A stretch of 64,000 bases of DNA from Candidatus Limnocylindrales bacterium. GTDB lineage: Bacteria > Chloroflexota > Limnocylindria > Limnocylindrales > CSP1-4. Every line of letters begins with the position of its first letter. Position 1 is the first letter of the stretch. Below the pieces are notes generated by a model. It did no database searches. It saw only the letters and a program-made list of their open reading frames with translations, and was not told where the DNA came from. Shown piece by piece: positions 6,320 through 33,406 of this stretch. Location of the stretch: assembly GCA_038915815.1 (NCBI GenBank), contig JBCLCL010000003.1, positions 7,015 to 71,014 of the forward strand, read 5' to 3'. The translations under genes were made by a program, and so were the position numbers.

Positions 6320-7197
6320 CTCAGCCGCTCCCGTGCGTCCGCGAGTGCCGCCTGCACCCCACGCCCCACCAGCACGCCCACCAGGTGGCGCTTGTAGTCC
6401 GCCGACCCGTTCGAGTCCGTGACCGGGTCGCTAGCCTCCGCCGCTGCCTGCCCCGCTGCCGCCAGCACCACCGGGTCGGGACCGCCGGCGTCCAGCCCGG
6501 CCAGCAGGGCCTCACCGACCGGTACGCGGACCGGGGCAAGGCCGACCGACCCGACGGCGATCCGCGCCTCCGCCATCGTCCGGTCCACGACCCGGACCAG
6601 GCAGCTCACGGTGACGGCCGGACGCTCATGGAACGCGAAGCGCAGGTGCGCCATCCCGGAGCCCGGCGGCAGCGGTGGCACCTCGATGGCGACCACCAGT
6701 TCGCCAGGTTCGAGGGCCGTGGTGTACGGACCGAGCACGAAGGACGAGAACGGCAGACGGCGGCGTTCATCGCCACGTCCCAGGACCAACCGGGCGTCCG
6801 CGGCAAGGAGGAAGGCGGCCGGGTCGGAGTGCGGGTCCGCGAAGGCCAGGTTGCCACCGAGCGTGCCGGTCGACCGGACGCGCACGTTCGCCACCACCCG
6901 CTCCATCCTCGCGAGCTGCGGCCAGTCGGCCGCGACCAGCGGCGAGCGCTCGATCGCCCGATGGGTCGCCGTCGCTCCGATGCGCAGGACGCCGTCGGCG
7001 ACGTCGATCCCCGCCAGCTCCGCGATCGGCTTGATGTCGACCAGGTGACCGTAGGCCGCGAAGCCAAGCTTCATCAGCAGCAGCAGCTCGGTCCCGCCGC
7101 CGTAGATGACCCCGTCGTCGCCATGCTCGCCGATGAGCGCGGTGGCTTCGGCGACCGAGCCGGCGCGGTGAAGCTCGAACGGCGCCACGGTCGTCAT
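6316..7197 (-). CDS. FAD-binding subunit of molybdo-hydroxylase (CoxM/XdhB-like, medium subunit)
   Basis: Start MTTVAPFELHR at 7197 (ATGA overlap with the upstream stop). GGTELLLLMKLG FAD-binding motif and CO-dehydrogenase flavoprotein C-terminal domain. The six-frame ORF extends artefactually to 7671. Confidence 0.8.
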   Translation of the reverse strand: MTTVAPFELHRAGSVAEATALIGEHGDDGVIYGGGTELLLLMKLGFAAYGHLVDIKPIAELAGIDVADGVLRIGATATHRAIERSPLVAADWPQLARMERVVANVRVRSTGTLGGNLAFADPHSDPAAFLLAADARLVLGRGDERRRLPFSSFVLGPYTTALEPGELVVAIEVPPLPPGSGMAHLRFAFHERPAVTVSCLVRVVDRTMAEARIAVGSVGLAPVRVPVGEALLAGLDAGGPDPVVLAAAGQAAAEASDPVTDSNGSADYKRHLVGVLVGRGVQAALADARERLR

Positions 7198-23935: not shown

Positions 23936-24193
23936 ATGCACATGCGCAACCTTGAACGTCGCGTCCAGCTTCTCCTCGACGAACCCCGCTTCCGGAAGGT
24001 GGCAGGCGAGGCAGGGCGCCGCCACGTGTCGGTGGCGGCGGTCATCCGCGAGGCGATCGATCGGTTGCCGGCAGGGGCCGATCAGCGTCGAGCCGCGATC
24101 GCCGAGATCCTCGCGGCCGAGCCGATGCCGCTGCCAGCTGATCCGGCCGAGCTCCGGCGTGAGCTGGACGTCGCCCGCGAGCGAGCGGGATGA
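23936..24193 (+). CDS. vapB: Type II antitoxin (VapB-like, ribbon-helix-helix)
   Basis: 85 aa. ATGA overlap with a downstream PIN gene. Typical TA architecture. Confidence 0.7.
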   Translation: MHMRNLERRVQLLLDEPRFRKVAGEAGRRHVSVAAVIREAIDRLPAGADQRRAAIAEILAAEPMPLPADPAELRRELDVARERAG

Positions 24194-24618
24194 TCATCCT
24201 CGACACGACGATCCTCGCCTACGCGGTCGGGGGCGAGCATCCCTTCCGCGATGCCTGCCGCCGGCTGCTTGAGGCGCACGCTGACGGTCGAGTCGAGGCG
24301 ACCACGACCGTCGAGGTGATCCAGGAGTTCGCTCACATTCGGGCCCGCCGTCAACCCCGGCCGGACGCCGTCCATCTCGCGCGTCAGTACGCGGCCGCCC
24401 TCAACATCCTGGTCACGACGCCAGACGATCTGGACCGCGGCCTCGGCTTGTTCGAGCGGTACCCCGCGCTCGGCGCGTTCGATTCGGTACTGGCGGCCGT
24501 CGCCCTGGGGCACCGCGCGCAGGCGCTCGTCTCCGCCGACAGAGCGTTCGCCTCCGTCCCGGGCCTGCCGTGGGTCGACCCTGCCACTCCCGCCCTGCTG
24601 CGACTCCTCGGGGACTAA
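24190..24618 (+). CDS. vapC: PIN-domain toxin VapC
   Basis: N-terminal ILDTTIL (first acidic residue) and the rest of the PIN acidic quartet. 142 aa. Confidence 0.8.
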   Translation: MIILDTTILAYAVGGEHPFRDACRRLLEAHADGRVEATTTVEVIQEFAHIRARRQPRPDAVHLARQYAAALNILVTTPDDLDRGLGLFERYPALGAFDSVLAAVALGHRAQALVSADRAFASVPGLPWVDPATPALLRLLGD

Positions 24619-24688: not shown

Positions 24689-24764
24689 GCGGGAGTAACT
24701 CAGCTGGCAGAGTGTCTGCTTCCCAAGCAGAATGTCGCGGGTTCGAATCCCGTCTCCCGCTCCA
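24689..24764 (+). tRNA. tRNA-Gly (anticodon CCC)
   Basis: 76-nt cloverleaf. Acceptor GCGGGAG/CTCCCGC, D-arm, anticodon stem TCTGC/GCAGA with loop TTCCCAA, T-arm GGTTCGAATCC, and an encoded CCA end. Confidence 0.9.
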
Positions 24765-24767
24765 CTT
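24719..24767 (+). repeat. attL: 49-bp direct repeat (3' half of tRNA-Gly)
   Basis: cttcccaagcagaatgtcgcgggttcgaatcccgtctcccgctccactt recurs at 29874..29922 with a single mismatch. Confidence 0.85.
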
Positions 24768-25039
24768 CCCAATCCGTGCTCACGGACTGACTGTCGGCGT
24801 CAACTGACGCTCGTCAAGCCCGAAGATTGAGCGGAGTTGTGGGGTGAAGGGCGGTTGACCGGTACCCGGCCTCGCCGGAGATCACCGCATCGATCGGCCG
24901 ACGACATTCTGCCCACCGGAGTCGCGTGCTCCGCGGGACATTCTGCTCAAGATCCGAGCCAGTCGATCCCGACCGCCGGGTGGGCCGAACGGGGCGACGC
25001 ACGGAGTCGCCCGGCGGGTTCCGGCGAAGGATCTCGACC

Positions 25040-26119
25040 ATGGCCTACCCGTACGACGGCGAGCCGAACCTACGCCCCGGCGCCGAGCGCGCCGCCCACA
25101 GCCTCGCCCCGCGCTTCGACCCGGAGCTCGCGCTCAACGAGCTGTTCGAGGACTTCCTCGCGGGCTCCGCCTCGCTCATCAACGCACGGACCGAGCGCAC
25201 CTACCGCTACGACTGGGGCCTGTACCGGGCGTGGCTCACCGAGACCGCCACGCCGGCCGTGCTCGGCACGATCACCAAGCAGCACCTCATCGACTACATC
25301 GCCTTCCTCCAGCGCCGGCCGAAGGCCAAGGGCAGGGGCACCCTCTCGTCGCACTCGGTCCACGCCTACGTCCGGGTCATCCGGACGTTCGTGCGCTGGC
25401 TGGTGACCGAGACCTACTACCCGATCGATCCGCTCGCCGGGGGCAAGCGCGGCGCGATGCCGCGTCTCGGGCCGCGCGTGCTCAAGGTCGCCAAGTCGAC
25501 CGACGTCGAGACCCTGCTGGCAGGGTCCGCCAAGGGCGAGGCGCGCGGCGCGATCGAGCGGGCGGGCCGGGGACGCGACGAGTTCATCGTCGTCCTGGTG
25601 ACCGACACCGGGCTGCGCAACAGCGAGGTCTGCGCCCTGCGGGTCGGCGACGTCGACGTGGCCGACGGCTGGGTCCTGGTCAAGGCCGGCAAGTGGGACC
25701 GCGAACGGCGCGTCCCGCTCAGTCGCGAGACGGTCGCGGCGCTGCGCCTCTACCTGCGGCGCAACCGGCCCGTCCTGTCGGGGCGGGCGCCCGAGTTCGT
25801 CGCCGCGGACGACGTGCTCGTGCTGTCGCGGACCGGCGCGCCGCTCACGCCCCCGGGCCTCTACCAGGCGATGGGCCGCGCCTATCGCCGGGGCGGGGGG
25901 ACCGGCCGGTTCGGCCTCCACCGCCTGCGCCACCTGTGGGGGACGACCGCCGCCGAGGGCGGGATGCACCCGCGCATCAGCCAGTCGATCATGGGCCACG
26001 AGGACGAGAAGAGCGAGCGCGTCTACCAGCACCCGTCGGACACCGCGATCAAGCGCGAGCACGCCCGGGTGACGCCGCTGCGCGACCTCGCCCCCGCCTG
26101 TCGCCGGCGGCTCGCGTAG
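25040..26119 (+). CDS. Tyrosine-type site-specific recombinase / phage integrase
   Basis: N-terminal SAM-like core-binding domain. Catalytic-domain motifs (R...HxLRH: GLHRLRHLWGT) and C-terminal Tyr (RVYQHPS). Confidence 0.85.
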   Translation: MAYPYDGEPNLRPGAERAAHSLAPRFDPELALNELFEDFLAGSASLINARTERTYRYDWGLYRAWLTETATPAVLGTITKQHLIDYIAFLQRRPKAKGRGTLSSHSVHAYVRVIRTFVRWLVTETYYPIDPLAGGKRGAMPRLGPRVLKVAKSTDVETLLAGSAKGEARGAIERAGRGRDEFIVVLVTDTGLRNSEVCALRVGDVDVADGWVLVKAGKWDRERRVPLSRETVAALRLYLRRNRPVLSGRAPEFVAADDVLVLSRTGAPLTPPGLYQAMGRAYRRGGGTGRFGLHRLRHLWGTTAAEGGMHPRISQSIMGHEDEKSERVYQHPSDTAIKREHARVTPLRDLAPACRRRLA

Positions 26120-26129
26120 GTTAAAACGG

Positions 26130-27044
26130 TCACGGTTGGGCGGCTTCCTCGGGATTCTGAGGGCTTGACTCGCGAAGGCCAGCGATAGTTGCGTCGGCGA
26201 GGTCTCTGAGGCGTTGAAGCTGCTCTACCACGACGCTGCGCGAGTTGTCCGAGAGATCGCCGCGTTCCCAAGCATCCGACACCTGATCGAGAACGCGCCC
26301 CTCAATAGCCCACGCTTGAGACAGAGTCGCGGTTAGCCGCTCGGCCGACGCGAGATGCTCCTCTCTTGGTTCTCGTCGCCGTTCCTTGATGTCCGCGAGC
26401 AGGTCGCCTCGCCCATTCGCAGACATGATGCCGGCGAGCTTGGCAGCCCCGTCTTGAGCGACCATCGGTCCATGGCGGGTCGCGTGTGCGCACCATCGGA
26501 CCGCGAGTTGCCCTTGCCCCTCGGCATCGAGTGCAACCAGTCGTGACGGCCGAGTCTCCGGGCCGAGTAGAGACGGCAAGTACACCGAAAACGCTCGTTG
26601 GAGCTCGACGATACCGCCGTCGAAGCCCAACTCTTCGTCCGGTGGCAGGGCGAACAAACCGAAGTTGCCGGGCCGCACATCACCGATTTCCGCCGCAGGC
26701 GCTGGTCGCACGGCCGCGAGGACCACCCGACCGCGGGGTCGGCCACCCTCGCGACGACCCTGAAGACTCTCCATCTCGCAATCGTCCGTGAGGATGATCG
26801 CTCGGCGAGGATTGCCGAAGCCGAGCGCTGCGTCACCGAACTCTGCGTGGCTGGCGATCACATCCTTGCCGGGTTCCCGCCCACTGTGCGGTAGCGTCGC
26901 ACGAGGGACGTAAACGACGCTGCCCCCCTTAGGTCGCGGTTCGAGGGCAATCGCATCGTGACGAAGGTAGAGGTCGAAGAGCCAGGTCGCCTCAAGCACA
27001 TCTCCGAAGCCGAGGCGTTCGTCTGGAGCTGGTGTTCGATACAC
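26130..27044 (-). CDS. Hypothetical protein (island cargo gene C, 304 aa)
   Basis: Good codon bias. GTG start 6 nt after the gene-B stop and in the same frame. No domain recognisable by eye. An acidic cluster ILTDDCEMES is present. Confidence 0.55.
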   Translation of the reverse strand: MYRTPAPDERLGFGDVLEATWLFDLYLRHDAIALEPRPKGGSVVYVPRATLPHSGREPGKDVIASHAEFGDAALGFGNPRRAIILTDDCEMESLQGRREGGRPRGRVVLAAVRPAPAAEIGDVRPGNFGLFALPPDEELGFDGGIVELQRAFSVYLPSLLGPETRPSRLVALDAEGQGQLAVRWCAHATRHGPMVAQDGAAKLAGIMSANGRGDLLADIKERRREPREEHLASAERLTATLSQAWAIEGRVLDQVSDAWERGDLSDNSRSVVVEQLQRLRDLADATIAGLRESSPQNPEEAAQP

Positions 27045-27050
27045 CTCCGA

Positions 27051-28217
27051 TCACCGTGTGCGGCGGTCGTAGAGGCTGAGATCGACGCCATAACGGGCGA
27101 GATCTGGCTGCCAAGCATCGATGCCCTCCAGTCCGGCGGCTACTTCTTCCAGCAGCCCAGGCTCGGACGGGACAGCCGGCTGATAGTGGAAGTCGGCCCA
27201 CGCTCGCTCTGACTCGCCCACAAGAAACGCCGACCAGGAATCCTGACCGAACGCCTCATCCCGAAGGATGGCGTCAGCGCGCCGTCGGAACTCAGCAACG
27301 GCCTCGGGCGACATGACGAGTAGAAACTCCCAATCGTCTTCCACGGGATCGCCTTCTTCGACGGCATGGATACTCTTTTCCATCCGCATGGCGGCCGCGA
27401 CTCGTTCCGAAGTTCGGGCATCAACGGTCGGCGCGAGATACCGAATGAACTGCACGATCTTCCCGAAGGCACCTGCCTCGATGATGCCCAGGACCTCGTC
27501 TACCTCGCTGCTGGAAACGGTCGGTCTGACCTCGGTCTCGAGCATCGTTGCTCGATGACGAACGGCGTTGTGGAAGAGACCTTCAAGTTCGTCCAGGCGA
27601 CCCTCCGCCAACAGGTCGGCCACCTCCACCGTGCGCTGACGGCACAGGTCCGCGGCAACCCGCATGTTCCGGGCAGCGAGTCGGTGCAAGAAGGCGACGC
27701 GATCCCCGATGGTGGCGAGCCTCTCTGGAGGAGGTTCCTCCCCCGCTCGAAACTCGTAGTAGCGACGCGTAGACACCCCGATCAGCTTCGCGAGAGCCCG
27801 AGCGCTCAGATTCAGCTCTTGGCGGAGTCGGTCGAGTGCCTCACGAATCGCGGCCGCGGATAGGCCGACAACCTGCTCAGTTGCGGCCGGCAACGTTGGC
27901 TTCGCGATCCAACGGACGGATAGGCTCCGACTTGGCGGGCCGATCTGGGTATGCGCGGCCAGAAGACCGGCCGAGATCGCGCCGGGCGCCGAAATGAAGG
28001 TGGGCGCGCCCTCCGGGTAGATCTCGCAGAATCGGAACGCGACGTCACTTGGATCGGTGGGCCAGAGGAACTCATCAGAGCCCGAGTACAAGCGGTTGAC
28101 CACGTCTGCGTCGAGAAGGGTCCAGTCGCCAGGCTCCGACCGTTCGGTCAAAGGCATCCCATTTGGCAGCGAATGCCGCGCGAGCGCTGGCTCCCACAAC
28201 CCAATCGGTGTCGTCAT
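27051..28217 (-). CDS. Hypothetical protein with central Xre-type helix-turn-helix (island cargo gene B, 388 aa)
   Basis: ATGA overlap with gene A. HTH segment LSARALAKLIGVSTRRYYEFRAG flanked by an unknown N-terminal ~120-aa domain and a C-terminal ~230-aa domain. Confidence 0.6.
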   Translation of the reverse strand: MTTPIGLWEPALARHSLPNGMPLTERSEPGDWTLLDADVVNRLYSGSDEFLWPTDPSDVAFRFCEIYPEGAPTFISAPGAISAGLLAAHTQIGPPSRSLSVRWIAKPTLPAATEQVVGLSAAAIREALDRLRQELNLSARALAKLIGVSTRRYYEFRAGEEPPPERLATIGDRVAFLHRLAARNMRVAADLCRQRTVEVADLLAEGRLDELEGLFHNAVRHRATMLETEVRPTVSSSEVDEVLGIIEAGAFGKIVQFIRYLAPTVDARTSERVAAAMRMEKSIHAVEEGDPVEDDWEFLLVMSPEAVAEFRRRADAILRDEAFGQDSWSAFLVGESERAWADFHYQPAVPSEPGLLEEVAAGLEGIDAWQPDLARYGVDLSLYDRRTR

Positions 28218-28993
28218 TCACCAGTCCCCCCAAGCATCTCGATCGCGGCCGGCGTGATGCTCCGCCGGAAGAGGTTCCAAGCCCATCGATGGTAGAGGTC
28301 AGCGCGTGCCAGCAGCTCATCGACCACGAAAGGAACATGTTGCTCGGTGAAGATGTCGGTATCCATGACATAGGTTGACGGATACTCCGCCCCGGCTGGG
28401 TTCCTCACGAATCCATAAGTCAGGTTGATCCCGTTGTCATCGATTGACATGGACACCTGCTGGATGCTGCGCTTTACACGCGCATCGATCCAAGGAGCGT
28501 TGGCATCGCCGAATAGGCTCGGTGCGATGTACCTCTGCCAATCAGGAACCGCCACCGCCTCCGCGCTCACGATCTCGTCCACGTACCGAATCCCGAGACG
28601 CTCGACACGGGTCACCCGTCCTCGGGCGACGACGATCTCCAAGAGTTCTCGCAGCCGATCCCGAAAGTCGACCCACGAGTCGTAGCGCGTTGTCTCCAAG
28701 CTGGCCATGTCCGGGCCTACGCTGACGACCCAGGTACCCGTTTCATCTCCGAAACGCGCCGGCCCTGGTTGAACGACCGGCGGGATAGGCGCGCCGGGGC
28801 CCGCGACGATCGTCATCTCTTGAATCCGCGGTAGCGACGTGGGGTAGCGCGTCGACAATGCGGTTTGCGTAGCCGCAAGGCCGGTCGGATCCGCCAACGC
28901 GTAGGCCGGTGGAAACCGAATCTGGGCGACCACGACCTTCAGCGGATTCCGCACGAACACGATCCGCTCATGGGTCTCTTGGTCGAATGTCAC
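28214..28993 (-). CDS. Hypothetical protein (island cargo gene A, 259 aa); N-terminus resembles the uncharacterised TIGR04255-type family
   Basis: AGGAGG SD 6 nt before the GTG start. N-terminal motif NPLKVVVAQIRFPP. First gene of the three-gene minus-strand cassette. Confidence 0.6.
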   Translation of the reverse strand: MTFDQETHERIVFVRNPLKVVVAQIRFPPAYALADPTGLAATQTALSTRYPTSLPRIQEMTIVAGPGAPIPPVVQPGPARFGDETGTWVVSVGPDMASLETTRYDSWVDFRDRLRELLEIVVARGRVTRVERLGIRYVDEIVSAEAVAVPDWQRYIAPSLFGDANAPWIDARVKRSIQQVSMSIDDNGINLTYGFVRNPAGAEYPSTYVMDTDIFTEQHVPFVVDELLARADLYHRWAWNLFRRSITPAAIEMLGGTGE

Positions 28994-29048
28994 CTCGAAC
29001 CTCCTGATCGCACATCCATCGCACTAACTGACACAGATCATAGTCGGT

Positions 29049-29822
29049 GTGCGGTTGGCGTGCGTCAAGATGCCGTTGGTCCTATTTGACGATGCGCCCT
29101 GCTTCACACAGGAACTCGCCGAGAGGGCATCTCACCATCGATTTGGCTGGCGAGCGGCGTACGACGAGGCGGTTGCGCTGGCCATCGGCCTCGATGACCC
29201 ATTCCGGCTCGGGATGGTCCTGTCGATGCGGGCGTGGGCCGAGGCCCCGGTCGACCCGGTCGCGGCCGAGGGCTGGCTGGAGCAGGCGGCCGAGGCCGCA
29301 CGCCGGACAGGCAACCCCGGGGCGATCGCCAGCCTCATGCTGATCCGCGGACGCATCGCCAGCGGTATCGATCGGCATTCGGACGCCCAGCGATGGTTCC
29401 GGGAGGCGCAGGCACAATTCCAGGCCGTCGGCGACACGCGGTTGGAGATCTCAGCCCAGAGCGAACTTGCGCATTCGCTCCGCCGCGCCGGCGCCACCGA
29501 CGAGGCCGAGGCGGAGTACCGTCACACGATCCTCGGGTGGCAGCGCAGTGGCAACCGCGGGGCGGTCGCCAACCAGCTGGAGTCGCTCGCGTTCACGGCG
29601 CTGCCCAGGGGTGACGGCGTCCAGGCGGCCCGCCTGCTCGGTGCCGCGGAAGCCCTGCGCGAGGCCGCCAAGGACCCCATGACAGCCTTCGAGCGCGCGG
29701 AGTACGACACCGAGGTGGCGCGTTTGCGCACGCAGCTCGACCCGCAGACCCTGAGTGACGCGGGGGCCGAGGGCCGCGCGCTTTCGATGGATGACGCCGT
29801 CATGTTCGCCATCTCCGGGTGA
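29049..29822 (+). pseudogene. 3' fragment of a large STAND/TPR-type regulator (C-terminal TPR region only)
   Basis: The translation ends ...AEGRALSMDDAVMFAISG, the characteristic C-terminus of actinobacterial ATPase-TPR (AfsR/cyclase-ATPase-like) regulators. No ATPase/N-terminal domains are present. It lies just inside attR. Confidence 0.45.
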
Positions 29823-29873: not shown

Positions 29874-29922
29874 CTTCCCAAGCAGAATGTCGCGGGTTCG
29901 ATTCCCGTCTCCCGCTCCACTT
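29874..29922 (+). repeat. attR: 49-bp direct repeat of tRNA-Gly 3' end
   Basis: 48/49 identity with 24719..24767 (gaatcc vs gattcc). Confidence 0.85.
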
Positions 29923-30015: not shown

Positions 30016-30252
30016 ATGGCGGAGATCGGGGTCAAGGAGCTGAAGGCGACTGCGTCCGCGGTGATCGAGCAGGTCGAGGGCGGTGCCGCATACATCATCA
30101 CCAAGCGCGGCCGCCCCGCTGCGGTCCTGCTGCCGGTCGACGAAGCCGAGGATCTCGTCCTTGCCAACGCCGACGAGTACGTGCGGATGCGCCGCGAAGC
30201 TCGTGCGGCCTACGCCAAGGGTCGGACGACCAGCCTCGGGGATCTCGTCTGA
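30016..30252 (+). CDS. Phd/YefM-family type II antitoxin
   Basis: 78 aa. MAEIGVKELKA... YIITKRGRPAAVLLPVDEAEDL is the canonical Phd/YefM motif. Confidence 0.8.
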   Translation: MAEIGVKELKATASAVIEQVEGGAAYIITKRGRPAAVLLPVDEAEDLVLANADEYVRMRREARAAYAKGRTTSLGDLV

Positions 30253-30545
30253 GTCCGTATCGCGTCGAGCTCGGGCCGTCGGCAGCCAAGGCGTTCAAGA
30301 AGTTGCCGCCCGAGGTCCGTGCCAGGGTGCAGCAAGCTCTTGAGAAGCTGGGACGGGACGTCGCGCCGCCGGGTCGCATCGGCGGCAAGGCCGTCAAGAC
30401 GATCCAGGGTGTGGGCGACTCGTTCCACCGACTCCGCGTCGGCGACTCCCGGGTGATGTACGACGTCATCGACGAAGACCAGGTGATCCTGGTCCTTGGC
30501 ATCGTTCATCGCGGCGACCTCGAGCGGTGGCTTCGGAACCGATAG
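30249..30545 (+). CDS. RelE/ParE-family type II toxin
   Basis: SPYRVELGPSAAKAFKKLPPEVRARVQQALEKL... is the canonical ParE/RelE N-terminus. Start codon uncertain (CTG 30249 or TTG 30303). Overlaps the antitoxin stop. Confidence 0.7.
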   Translation: MSPYRVELGPSAAKAFKKLPPEVRARVQQALEKLGRDVAPPGRIGGKAVKTIQGVGDSFHRLRVGDSRVMYDVIDEDQVILVLGIVHRGDLERWLRNR

Positions 30546-30939: not shown

Positions 30940-31341
30940 TCAGTCGGGCTCGATCCGTCGAACCGTGGTGACCCGGTCGATCGAGCGGTCGAAGGAGGCG
31001 ATCGTGCCCACCCCGGTTCGCTCGGCCGAGGCGACCAGGTAGGCCTCGGCGAAGTCGAGCCGGTCGTGCTCGTAGACCTCGATCGCCCGGTGCAGGAGGT
31101 CGCGATCGACGACCTCGATCGGGGGAAAGGCCAGGATCGCGCGCAGGATGCCGGCGACGGCGGGACGCGGCGCCTCGTAGTAGGACTCGAGCACGTAGGC
31201 CACTTCGGCGAGGATGAGATCGGCCAGGAGCATTGCCTCGGCGCGCTCCAGGAACCGCGTCGCGCGCTCGGCCTGGTCCGGTGGGTCGCCCGTGACGTGA
31301 CGCACGAGGACGTTCGTGTCGACGAACATCGACGCCGTCAT
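30940..31341 (-). CDS. vapC: PIN-domain toxin VapC
   Basis: MFVDTNVLVRH... with PIN acidic residues. 133 aa. Confidence 0.8.
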   Translation of the reverse strand: MTASMFVDTNVLVRHVTGDPPDQAERATRFLERAEAMLLADLILAEVAYVLESYYEAPRPAVAGILRAILAFPPIEVVDRDLLHRAIEVYEHDRLDFAEAYLVASAERTGVGTIASFDRSIDRVTTVRRIEPD

Positions 31342-31586
31342 GGGCGCTCGGCGGCGCGGGCTCGTCGGGTCTCGCGAAGGACGCCTGACCAGGGTGTGCC
31401 GCGCTTCGCGGCCGGGACCGGGATCGAGCCGGCCAGGGCGAGCAGGTCGGGCGTCCGCGCCAGGACAGCTCGCTCGCCCTCGACTCGAAAGACGACGCGG
31501 TCGCCGTCCTTGAGGTCGAGCGCCTTCCGAACCGCGCTCGGGACCGTGATCTGGCCCTTCGATGTCATGCGCGCCGAGATCTCCAT
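31338..31586 (-). CDS. vapB: AbrB/MazE/SpoVT-type antitoxin (VapB)
   Basis: SKGQITVPSAVRKALDLKDGDRVVF is the swapped-hairpin AbrB motif. ATGA overlap with vapC. Confidence 0.8.
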   Translation of the reverse strand: MEISARMTSKGQITVPSAVRKALDLKDGDRVVFRVEGERAVLARTPDLLALAGSIPVPAAKRGTPWSGVLRETRRARAAERP

Positions 31587-32980: not shown

Positions 32981-33406
32981 TCAGCCGAACGGATTCTCGA
33001 TGCGGACGCCGCCGATGGAGCGTCCGCCCTGGAGGTCCTCGGTCATCAGGCGCGTCGCACCGGCGCGTCTCGCCGCCTCGATGACCAGCGTGTCCCAGTA
33101 CGAGAGGTGGTGCCGTTCCTCGAGCTGCGATGCCGCCAGGATGAGCGGCAGATCCACCTGGACGAGCGGCCAGCTGCCGTACAGGGCGACGACCTCGCGG
33201 GCGGCGCGGCGGCTCATCGGCGGGTCGAACTTGCGCGTCGCGACAACGTAGAACTCCTGGAGGATCTGGGTGCTGAGCGCCCCGGTCCGGGTCGCCCACA
33301 GCTCTTCGAGCAGCGCCCGGGCGATCGGCTGCTTCCGGACCTCCGAACGGTCATGCGCATAGACGAGGATGTTCGTGTCGACGAACGTCAGCGCGCCGGC
33401 GACCAT
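32981..33406 (-). CDS. vapC: PIN-domain toxin VapC
   Basis: FVDTNILVYAHD..., conserved PIN acidic quartet. 141 aa. Confidence 0.8.
   Translation of the reverse strand: MVAGALTFVDTNILVYAHDRSEVRKQPIARALLEELWATRTGALSTQILQEFYVVATRKFDPPMSRRAAREVVALYGSWPLVQVDLPLILAASQLEERHHLSYWDTLVIEAARRAGATRLMTEDLQGGRSIGGVRIENPFG

Follow-up and report, generated by a model that had tools for sequence, protein, structure and literature searches.

Among the systems that come closest to the locus analysed here are the MazEF, Kis-Kid and CcdAB toxin-antitoxin (TA) modules, the tripartite TA systems and the type II Gabija system. Tripartite TA systems, which include HigBA-SecB ('TAC'), CmdTAC, HipBST and PaaR-PaaA-ParE, add to the TA pair a third protein that modulates it, and some of them are proven anti-phage systems. 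In type VII TA systems, e.g. MntA-HepT and TomB-Hha, the antitoxin is an enzyme. More generally, antitoxins and specificity partners tend to diverge fast. In type II Gabija (Liu-DS1), the validated defence effector GajC is a MazF-like protein with a helical insertion that was recognized by structure only (PMC13069673). The locus described below, which lies in a 64-kb stretch of DNA (the window), joins three genes, designated A, B and C, in a cassette of 2.9 kb that is most likely a three-part TA or phage-defence system, and its function seems to be undescribed so far. The parts of the locus are as follows.

24689-24764, forward strand: tRNA-Gly(CCC), called by ARAGORN (24689-24767 as a feature together with attL)
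24719-24767, forward strand: attL, the 3' part of tRNA-Gly(CCC), from a direct-repeat search
24926-26119, forward strand: tyrosine integrase (Pfam Phage_integrase, E 1e-24)
26130-27044, reverse strand: gene C, 304 aa, GTG start (ORF call)
27051-28217, reverse strand: gene B, 388 aa, ATG start (ORF call)
28214-28993, reverse strand: gene A, 259 aa, GTG start (ORF call)
29000-29068, reverse strand: promoter/operator and Shine-Dalgarno (SD) sequence of the operon (TTGACG, 29068-29063; TATGAT, 29042-29037; AGGAGG, 29005-29000)
29049-29822, forward strand: ORF of 257 aa with tetratricopeptide repeats (TPR_12, E 2e-7)
29874-29922, forward strand: attR, a 49-nt copy of the tRNA 3' end with one mismatch to attL

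Two claims of an earlier note on this DNA, that the cassette sits in a tRNA-integrated island and that the surroundings are dense in TA genes, are both borne out. The island measures 5.15 kb and is delimited by the 49-nt repeats; it has the tRNA gene, the repeat of its 3' end, an adjoining tyrosine integrase and an atypical composition, GC being 62-66 % over the cassette and approximately 70 % in the flanks, where PIN and PhdYeFM genes are found. In sibling genomes, a second element stands in tandem at the same tRNA. The integrase is convergent with C, with 10 nt between the two stops, and no separate excisionase is visible on the island. GC at third codon positions is host-like in the integrase (0.955), 0.66-0.73 in the cassette and 0.85 in the TPR ORF, and the cassette is probably a later acquisition than the island because its value differs so sharply from that of the integrase. 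The same note had taken A-B-C to be the only cargo, which is incorrect, given that the TPR ORF also lies inside the island. This ORF is called as a gene in NCBI assemblies and is divergent from A, and its annotated start overlaps the operator upstream of A. It does not stand beside A in six related loci (L001-L006) and lies outside the conserved cassette.

The three minus-strand genes are as tightly coupled as had been described: 6 nt lie between the SD sequence and the GTG start of A, genes A and B share a 4-nt ATGA overlap, and 6 nt separate the stop of B from the GTG of C. Across close loci the A/B overlap is kept at 4 nt, and the B/C junction ranges from a 1-nt overlap to a gap of 6 nt; B and C are neighbours in every C-family locus examined. 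The layout is that of a type II TA operon, in which a DNA-binding partner and a putative toxin are encoded side by side on one strand, with tight coupling, and are conserved as a unit. The annotated start of C is supported by its N-terminal MYR, which is conserved in 34 homologues. Two NCBI assemblies of sibling strains lack a call for C, and inactivation of the gene was considered and rejected; since identity at the DNA level is 99.8-100 % and every sibling has an intact C, the missing calls are a gene-caller artefact. In the window and six other loci, B and C are in one frame with a spacer of 3 or 6 nt, and their fusion via stop-codon readthrough was also considered. It was dropped on the 1-nt overlap in L011, which is in a different frame, on the 4-nt overlaps in L013 and L053, and on the stop codon, which is either TGA or TAA.

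Upstream of A there are four CGCAC half-sites, which form two inverted CGCAC-N6-CGCAC pairs (29049-29064 and 29009-29024) on either side of the -10 element, with the paired inverted half-sites 11 bp apart. The motif occurs three times in the 64 kb against 0.74 expected, and this pair accounts for two of the three. Approximately 95 nt upstream of A are conserved in L002 and L006, with identical half-site geometry, and the flanks farther out are unrelated. The promoter region moves along with the cassette and not with the island. Additionally, L006 has a 23-nt inverted repeat and distant loci have a related motif. Judged from sequence, the paired half-sites are a candidate binding site of B. A strict sigma-70 scan returned no promoter, the TTGACG-TATGAT spacing being 20 nt versus the 16-18 nt covered by the tool, and in a terminator scan the sole terminator-like site fell within gene B, with no stable hairpin after C.

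According to the earlier note, none of the three proteins has a domain that can be assigned by eye to a described defence family. For C this stands at the level of sequence and profile, but not at the level of structure, and A, as set out below, belongs in full to a curated family. In the structural model, the N-terminal domain of C (approximately aa 1-172) is predicted to be an SH3-like barrel of the MazF/Kid/CcdB fold, and the C-terminal part (approximately aa 174-300) is a helical bundle. C as a MazF recognizable from sequence is rejected, as a Pfam search with 63 C-family members gave no match at E <=10, and hhalign placed C against a MazF profile, validated on PDB MazFs, at a probability of just 0.4 %. 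C89 and R190 are the sole positions kept nearly without exception throughout the superfamily; R28 and T86 show no variation within the close subfamily but do vary beyond it, and the catalytic Arg/Thr of MazF could not be mapped on C. The subfamily motifs are WLFDLYLRHD, TDDCE and CAHxTRHGP, and confidence in the model is low for the loop with the RHD motif. A scan of GTDB species representatives with the motifs of C found no relative, and PDB sequence searches with A, B and C yielded nothing significant.

TIGR04255 is a curated NCBIfam family of 'sporadically distributed' hypothetical proteins from several bacterial phyla, and a literature search found no paper mentioning it. The resemblance of A to this family, which had been placed in the N-terminus only, extends over its whole length (from position 3 to 249 of the 252-position profile; 125.1 bits, E 4.1e-36, with the curated NCBIfam cut-off at 30), and the A genes of L004, L011 and L013 likewise score above the cut-off. 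Weak matches of its structural model suggest a curved-sheet alpha+beta fold that is TBP-like or guanidino-kinase-like; these matches include the ATP-using guanidino kinases McsB and arginine kinase as well as glutamine synthetase/GCL, and a viral fold search gave generic or TBP-like matches only. Across the superfamily, A has the richest invariant polar cluster, made up of T101, Y104, R132-x-G134-x-R136-Y-V-D139 and D211-x-D213.

For B, the earlier note had described a central Xre-type helix-turn-helix (HTH) between two domains. Its position (approximately aa 125-170, flanked in the alignment by an N-terminal domain and a conserved C-terminal domain) and its recurrence uphold that description, but its score does not reach the Pfam threshold (HTH_3, 22.0 bits versus a cut-off of 23, E 1.7e-4). 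Families of the Xre type match eight of 16 B homologues, all below threshold, and the short B' forms carry the HTH at the same relative position, again below threshold. The N-terminal domain is limited to the close clade of the window and its nearest relatives. The C-terminal domain conserves W296, F298, R319, F323, W328 and F331, and the protein terminates in a basic tail, YDRRTR. B also diverges fastest, with 27-33 % identity where A retains 45-51 % and C 39-50 %.

The co-occurrence of the three genes beyond this strain, on which the earlier note had let its proposal depend, was found in every neighbourhood examined, and no profile places the genes in a housekeeping pathway. A and B precede C in 14 of 14 C-family neighbourhoods that have enough upstream sequence (L001-L006, L011, L013, L019, L021, L022, L027, L053 and L054); the flanks of these loci are unrelated, and the named carriers are Chloroflexota MAGs. 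Homologues of A, B and C stand together across many unrelated genomes and phyla. At TIGR04255 loci in named genomes, the second gene is B-like in 29 of 32 and the third is C-like in 22 of 32. The homology of these third genes to C is given by hhalign with the diverse A4 profile (95 % probability, E 3.7e-8), the A1 versus A5 comparison being weak alone (P 0.0066) and only the more diverse A4 convincing; as an alignment, A4 is too variable for pattern scans. No B or C is detectable among the genes that follow A in a Burkholderia phage, on a Rhizobium plasmid and in about eight genomes, and third genes that are not C-like have no recognizable effector domain in Pfam. Mobile carriage recurs: a conjugative plasmid of Chroococcidiopsis carries the full triad next to a recombinase, and in Burkholderia prophages TIGR04255 genes are flanked by the integrase on one side and a HigBA-like pair on the other. 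Neighbours at some loci include GmrSD, Mrr_cat, MTase plus REase, HigBA, SLFN/AlbA_2 and AAA_14-DUF4143. The neighbourhoods are mixed, some with defence or mobile genes and many with ordinary metabolic genes, and are not uniformly defence islands; most triads have no integrase nearby. PADLOC-DB v2.0.0, which does not cover systems described after 2023, has no match to A, B or C at E <=1, and no description of an A-B-C system was found in the literature.

The reading that we favour, with confidence that is about evenly balanced, is that A-B-C is an autoregulated three-component TA-like (possibly abortive-infection) operon that moves horizontally as a unit. TA or addiction is preferred specifically because of the toxin-type fold of C, the fast-evolving HTH partner and the conserved operator. 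C would be the effector, a helical bundle joined to a divergent toxin domain of the MazF/CcdB fold, and once released it may stop growth, either by cleaving RNA or by poisoning a target protein in the manner of CcdB. B would serve as cognate antitoxin and as transcriptional repressor, with its Xre-type HTH on the four CGCAC half-sites and with C kept inactive by the tail and the conserved C-terminal domain. A would be an obligatory third partner whose polar cluster, enzyme-like or ligand-binding, sets or senses the state of the B-C complex, be it as modifier, sensor or stabilizer. Several observations count against the TA reading, i.e. C resembles PemK, MazF and CcdB neither in sequence nor in profile and its invariant Cys and Arg do not match the pattern of MazF, B has a sub-threshold HTH, the RHD loop is of low confidence, the neighbourhoods are mixed, and there are TIGR04255 loci without detectable B or C downstream. 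The earlier proposal of an undescribed defence or addiction cassette stands in part: conservation, the lack of a match to known families and the TA traits speak for it, but the mixed neighbourhoods do not.

An anti-phage role is plausible from genomic context, and the carrier settings (islands, conjugative plasmids, prophage accessory regions, defence neighbours) are compatible with defence. In its dedicated form, that of abortive infection, A or B would sense a phage cue and free C, so that the infected cell is killed or arrested. This version, which we judge possible rather than probable, gains from the carriage on islands, on conjugative plasmids and in the prophage accessory region beside the HigBA-like pair, from the defence genes near some loci (GmrSD, Mrr_cat, MTase plus REase, SLFN/AlbA_2, AAA_14-DUF4143), from the quick divergence of B and the sporadic distribution, and from the precedent of a MazF-like effector in type II Gabija. 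However, the PADLOC search was negative, many neighbourhoods are metabolic, and the same features would suit a purely selfish addiction module. Abortive infection overlaps the TA reading, as it adds a biological role and not a different mechanism. Since A looks more enzyme-like than C, the effector could instead be A, a toxic or antiviral TIGR04255 enzyme with B as its regulator or antitoxin and C as a MazF-fold adaptor, sensor or substrate. The superfamily-wide cluster of R132, R136, D139, D211, D213, T101 and Y104, the weak fold matches to guanidino kinases and glutamine synthetase/GCL, the retention of A alone when the downstream genes change (Burkholderia phage, Rhizobium plasmid) and the absence of MazF sequence signatures from C all point that way, and we nonetheless consider it unlikely. 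It is highly improbable that A-B-C is no independent system but serves this integrative element for regulation or maintenance, acting for example in excision or immunity. Its position between integrase and attR, the lack of a visible separate excisionase and the recombinases that adjoin in two other carriers, the Chroococcidiopsis plasmid and the Burkholderia phage, would agree with such a role, but most triads are far from any integrase, the third-position GC of the cassette is far from that of the integrase, and the promoter region moves with the cassette.

That TIGR04255 is linked to proteins with an HTH and with a MazF fold is a new context for the family. If the three-component TA-like reading is true, it would give TIGR04255 its first functional context, add to the toxins of the MazF/CcdB fold a new branch that escapes TA and defence finders working from sequence, and introduce a three-part layout in which the third protein belongs neither to the chaperones nor to the known regulators. 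A broader conjecture, rather unlikely as it stands, is that TIGR04255 forms the core of widespread, undescribed three-gene conflict systems that travel on prophages, conjugative plasmids and integrative islands and protect against phages by abortive infection, in which A, as enzyme or sensor, would control new MazF-fold toxins through or with a fast-evolving HTH partner, maybe by covalent modification of the invariant Cys or Arg of C, with partners exchangeable between lineages. Because the module is small, has a defined candidate operator and rides on mobile elements, toxicity, neutralization, DNA binding and phage protection are all directly testable.

Set against MazEF, Kis-Kid and CcdAB, the predicted fold of C is alike, yet no sequence or profile similarity accompanies it. 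C is also approximately three times as large, approximately 130 aa of it being an additional helical bundle, and its invariant residues are Cys and Arg, unlike the Arg/Thr pair of MazF. Its partner B is an Xre-type HTH protein of 388 aa in place of an AbrB or RHH protein, and a TIGR04255 gene comes first, as an obligatory third gene. By analogy only with the type VII systems, an enzyme-like A could modify C, which has a single invariant Cys and Arg. Like C, GajC combines a divergent MazF-like domain, seen by structure only, with helical elements. The two are likened by architecture alone, which differs in that a helical insertion interrupts the MazF domain of GajC and the helices of C form a bundle at the C-terminal end; moreover, the partner of GajC is a UvrD-type helicase (GajB), whereas those of C are the TIGR04255 and HTH proteins. 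The cassette has no SecB-like chaperone as its third component and so is not a TAC system, but with HigBA-SecB, CmdTAC, HipBST and PaaR-PaaA-ParE it shares the organization of a three-gene operon.

ORF calls bear out the three minus-strand genes that the earlier note had read as a translationally coupled cassette:

28214-28993, minus strand: gene A, 259 aa, GTG start
27051-28217, minus strand: gene B, 388 aa, ATG start
26130-27044, minus strand: gene C, 304 aa, GTG start

The coupling is likewise as described on the minus-strand reading: AGGAGG (29005-29000) stands 6 nt ahead of the GTG start of A, an ATGA is shared by the end of A and the start of B, and 6 nt separate the TGA of B from the GTG of C, a start supported by conservation of an N-terminal MYR in 34 C homologues. 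In the window (27044-27053) and six related loci (L001-L006), B and C lie in one reading frame with 3- or 6-nt spacers. A B-C fusion made by readthrough is unlikely, since homologous loci L011, L013 and L053 break the frame rule and the stop codons vary; the shared frame may be a relic of an ancestral in-frame arrangement. Among the sibling NCBI assemblies, C is intact yet uncalled in L007 (GCA_038916335.1) and L009 (GCA_038916205.1), where a 98-aa opposite-strand ORF is annotated instead, and is annotated from a shorter start (289 aa) in L010. The missing calls are an annotation artefact, which would conceal the family from protein-based surveys.

The cassette is conserved as a unit. Co-occurrence of A-B-C homologues in other genomes, which the earlier note had offered as a check on its reading, was found: all 14 C neighbourhoods with enough upstream sequence (homologous loci L001-L006, L011, L013, L019, L021, L022, L027, L053 and L054) have the order A (~260 aa, TIGR04255), B, C, in flanks that are mutually unrelated. 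The C family, whose members are all stand-alone proteins of ~260-330 aa, is rare but real, with 34 clusters at 90 % identity and, by exhaustive HMM search, 157 at 50 %; a search of GTDB species-representative genomes with C-specific motifs gave no relatives. Three Chloroflexota MAGs are the named genomes that carry all three genes with B in its long form. Across 32 TIGR04255 loci in named genomes, spanning Actinomycetota, Chloroflexota, Alpha- and Gammaproteobacteria, Gemmatimonadota, Myxococcota and Spirochaetota, iterated profiles recover a B-like second gene in 29 and a C-like third gene in 22. As iterated-profile E-values are lenient on a small database, C-likeness was checked separately by hhalign, and a diverse C alignment matched third genes from 12 distant loci (95 % probability, E 3.7e-8) across a conserved core that contains the invariant Cys. 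Neither of the two genes downstream of A is recognisable as B or C, or has a Pfam domain, in about eight TIGR04255 loci and also in a Burkholderia phage and on a Rhizobium plasmid, so A may have alternative partners. Over the same genome pairs B is much the fastest-diverging protein (27-33 % identity, vs 45-51 % for A and 39-50 % for C).

The earlier note had confined the TIGR04255 likeness of A to its N-terminus, but the whole model is matched (positions 3-249 of 252, E 4e-36). The same central segment of two distant TIGR04255 proteins, A (aa 100-141; window 28570-28695) and the A protein at homologous locus L042, is weakly matched (E 0.02 and 0.006) by phrog_5464, a PHROG family of unknown function with a 248-position profile that may represent the phage branch of TIGR04255. 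The central Xre-type HTH that had been read in B is seen at ~aa 125-170 and recurs in 8 of 16 homologues and in shorter B-like proteins of distant loci, although its HTH_3 score is sub-threshold (22.0 bits, cut-off 23). The C-terminal domain of B is conserved in alignment, and within its own clade B carries a basic tail, (Y/F)DRRxR. C is predicted to resemble MazF/CcdB toxins in fold only: none of 63 C-family members matches PemK/CcdB, and in hhalign a MazF profile that had been validated on PDB MazFs gives 0.4 % probability. Its close subfamily shares WLFDLYLRHD, TDDCE and CAHxTRHGP, with C89 and R190 as the only near-invariant residues superfamily-wide.

The components of a tRNA-integrated island were all found, as were toxin-antitoxin (TA) genes in its flanks, so that the setting is the TA-dense accessory region previously described:

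23936-24618: TA pair, PIN gene overlapped by a small ORF upstream
24689-24764: tRNA-Gly(CCC)
24719-24767 and 29874-29922: 49-nt direct repeats, one mismatch
24926-26119: tyrosine integrase
29049-29822, plus strand: TPR ORF, 257 aa, divergent from A, with TPR_12 and a weak NsdA-like match
30016-30545: TA pair, PhdYeFM and an unclassified 80-aa partner ORF
30940-31586: TA pair, AbrB-like ORF and PIN
32981-33406: PIN-like ORF

A-B-C is not the sole cargo, as had been claimed, the TPR ORF being a fourth. This ORF, which may be a regulator fragment, was not found beside A at other loci. GC drops to 62-66 % over the cassette in a high-GC genome (70 %), and cassette GC3 (0.66-0.73) is far from that of host genes (0.85-0.92) and the island integrase (0.955; TPR gene, 0.85); the cassette therefore seems to have been inserted separately and later, as lower-GC DNA, into an island that was already adapted to the host. 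Four sibling NCBI assemblies carry the island at 99.7-100 % identity. In two siblings (L007 and L010; ~6451-6526), identity to the window stops exactly at the att repeat (24719-24767). Beyond it comes another att-like copy, similar to attR together with 18 nt from the end of the island, and the genes after that are different ones, with BNR_4 in one sibling and SHOCT in the other. Hence, tRNA-Gly(CCC) looks like a hotspot for tandem integrative elements.

About 95 nt 5' of A are conserved among the window and homologous loci L002 and L006, whereas farther flanks differ. The stretch holds:

29068-29063, minus strand: TTGACG
29042-29037, minus strand: TATGAT (-10 element)
29049-29064 and 29009-29024: two pairs of CGCAC half-sites, four in all

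Half-sites are 11 bp apart, and the pairs flank the -10 element in inverted orientation, as expected for an HTH repressor that binds as a dimer of dimers. The 64-kb window has three copies of the paired motif (0.74 expected), two of these being the pair around the -10. The geometry is identical in L002 and L006, the latter forming a 23-nt inverted repeat in its operator region, and more distant loci retain TTGAC[CG]GCAC-N6-GCAC. From this candidate operator we infer that B would autoregulate the operon. The longest start of the TPR ORF overlaps the pair at 29049-29064.

TIGR04255 genes are also found on plasmids (seven, of which six are conjugative) and in seven Burkholderia phages of ~36-37 kb. 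On Chroococcidiopsis pCHRO.01, the full triad adjoins a tyrosine recombinase. In the phages (vB_FKKS3, L056, 4983-7013, and six relatives), the TIGR04255 gene heads a trio in an accessory region of the prophage, with the integrase on one side and, on the other, a HigBA-like pair adjacent to the portal gene; in L056 the two coupled genes that follow (175 and 236 aa) are not recognisable as B or C and make up a different partner set. The phage site is of a type with accessory regions such as P2-like hotspots, in which defence genes are often found. On a conjugative Rhizobium sp. CB3060 plasmid (L059, 1180-6162), a TIGR04255-led trio comes right after a multiubiquitin/ThiF adenylyltransferase/DUF6527 cluster, with an IS110 transposase beyond it, the whole resembling a conflict-system island. 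Neighbours elsewhere include GmrSD, Mrr_cat, MTase-REase, SLFN/AlbA_2, RhuM, AAA_14-DUF4143 and a group II intron RT, along with ordinary metabolic genes.

Given about an even chance here is that A-B-C forms an autoregulated tripartite TA-like module, in which C would act as toxin, B would serve as both antitoxin and repressor, and A, with an enzyme-like site, would be the obligatory third partner. The predicted toxin-like fold of C and the candidate operator are consistent with this assignment; the role of A is its least constrained part. The main rival, judged rather improbable, casts A as effector, with C as an adaptor or substrate. The occurrence of A with partners other than B and C sits readily with that rival, and the order A-B-C in every C neighbourhood counted with the tripartite module. 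For the latter, a defence (abortive-infection) role would be compatible with the carriers and some of the neighbours.

The earlier note's view of the system as undescribed stands, post-2023 reports under other names aside: literature searches gave no description, no paper in the literature searched mentions the name TIGR04255, and PADLOC v2, a check it had suggested, has no model for A, B or C. Being widespread, compact and directly testable, the cassette is of moderate-to-high interest. Its proposed TA-like logic and predicted toxin fold are of a known kind, and the families and three-part architecture are new. For a MazF-like likeness seen in structure alone there is a published precedent in the type II Gabija effector GajC, which also has helical elements (PMC13069673).
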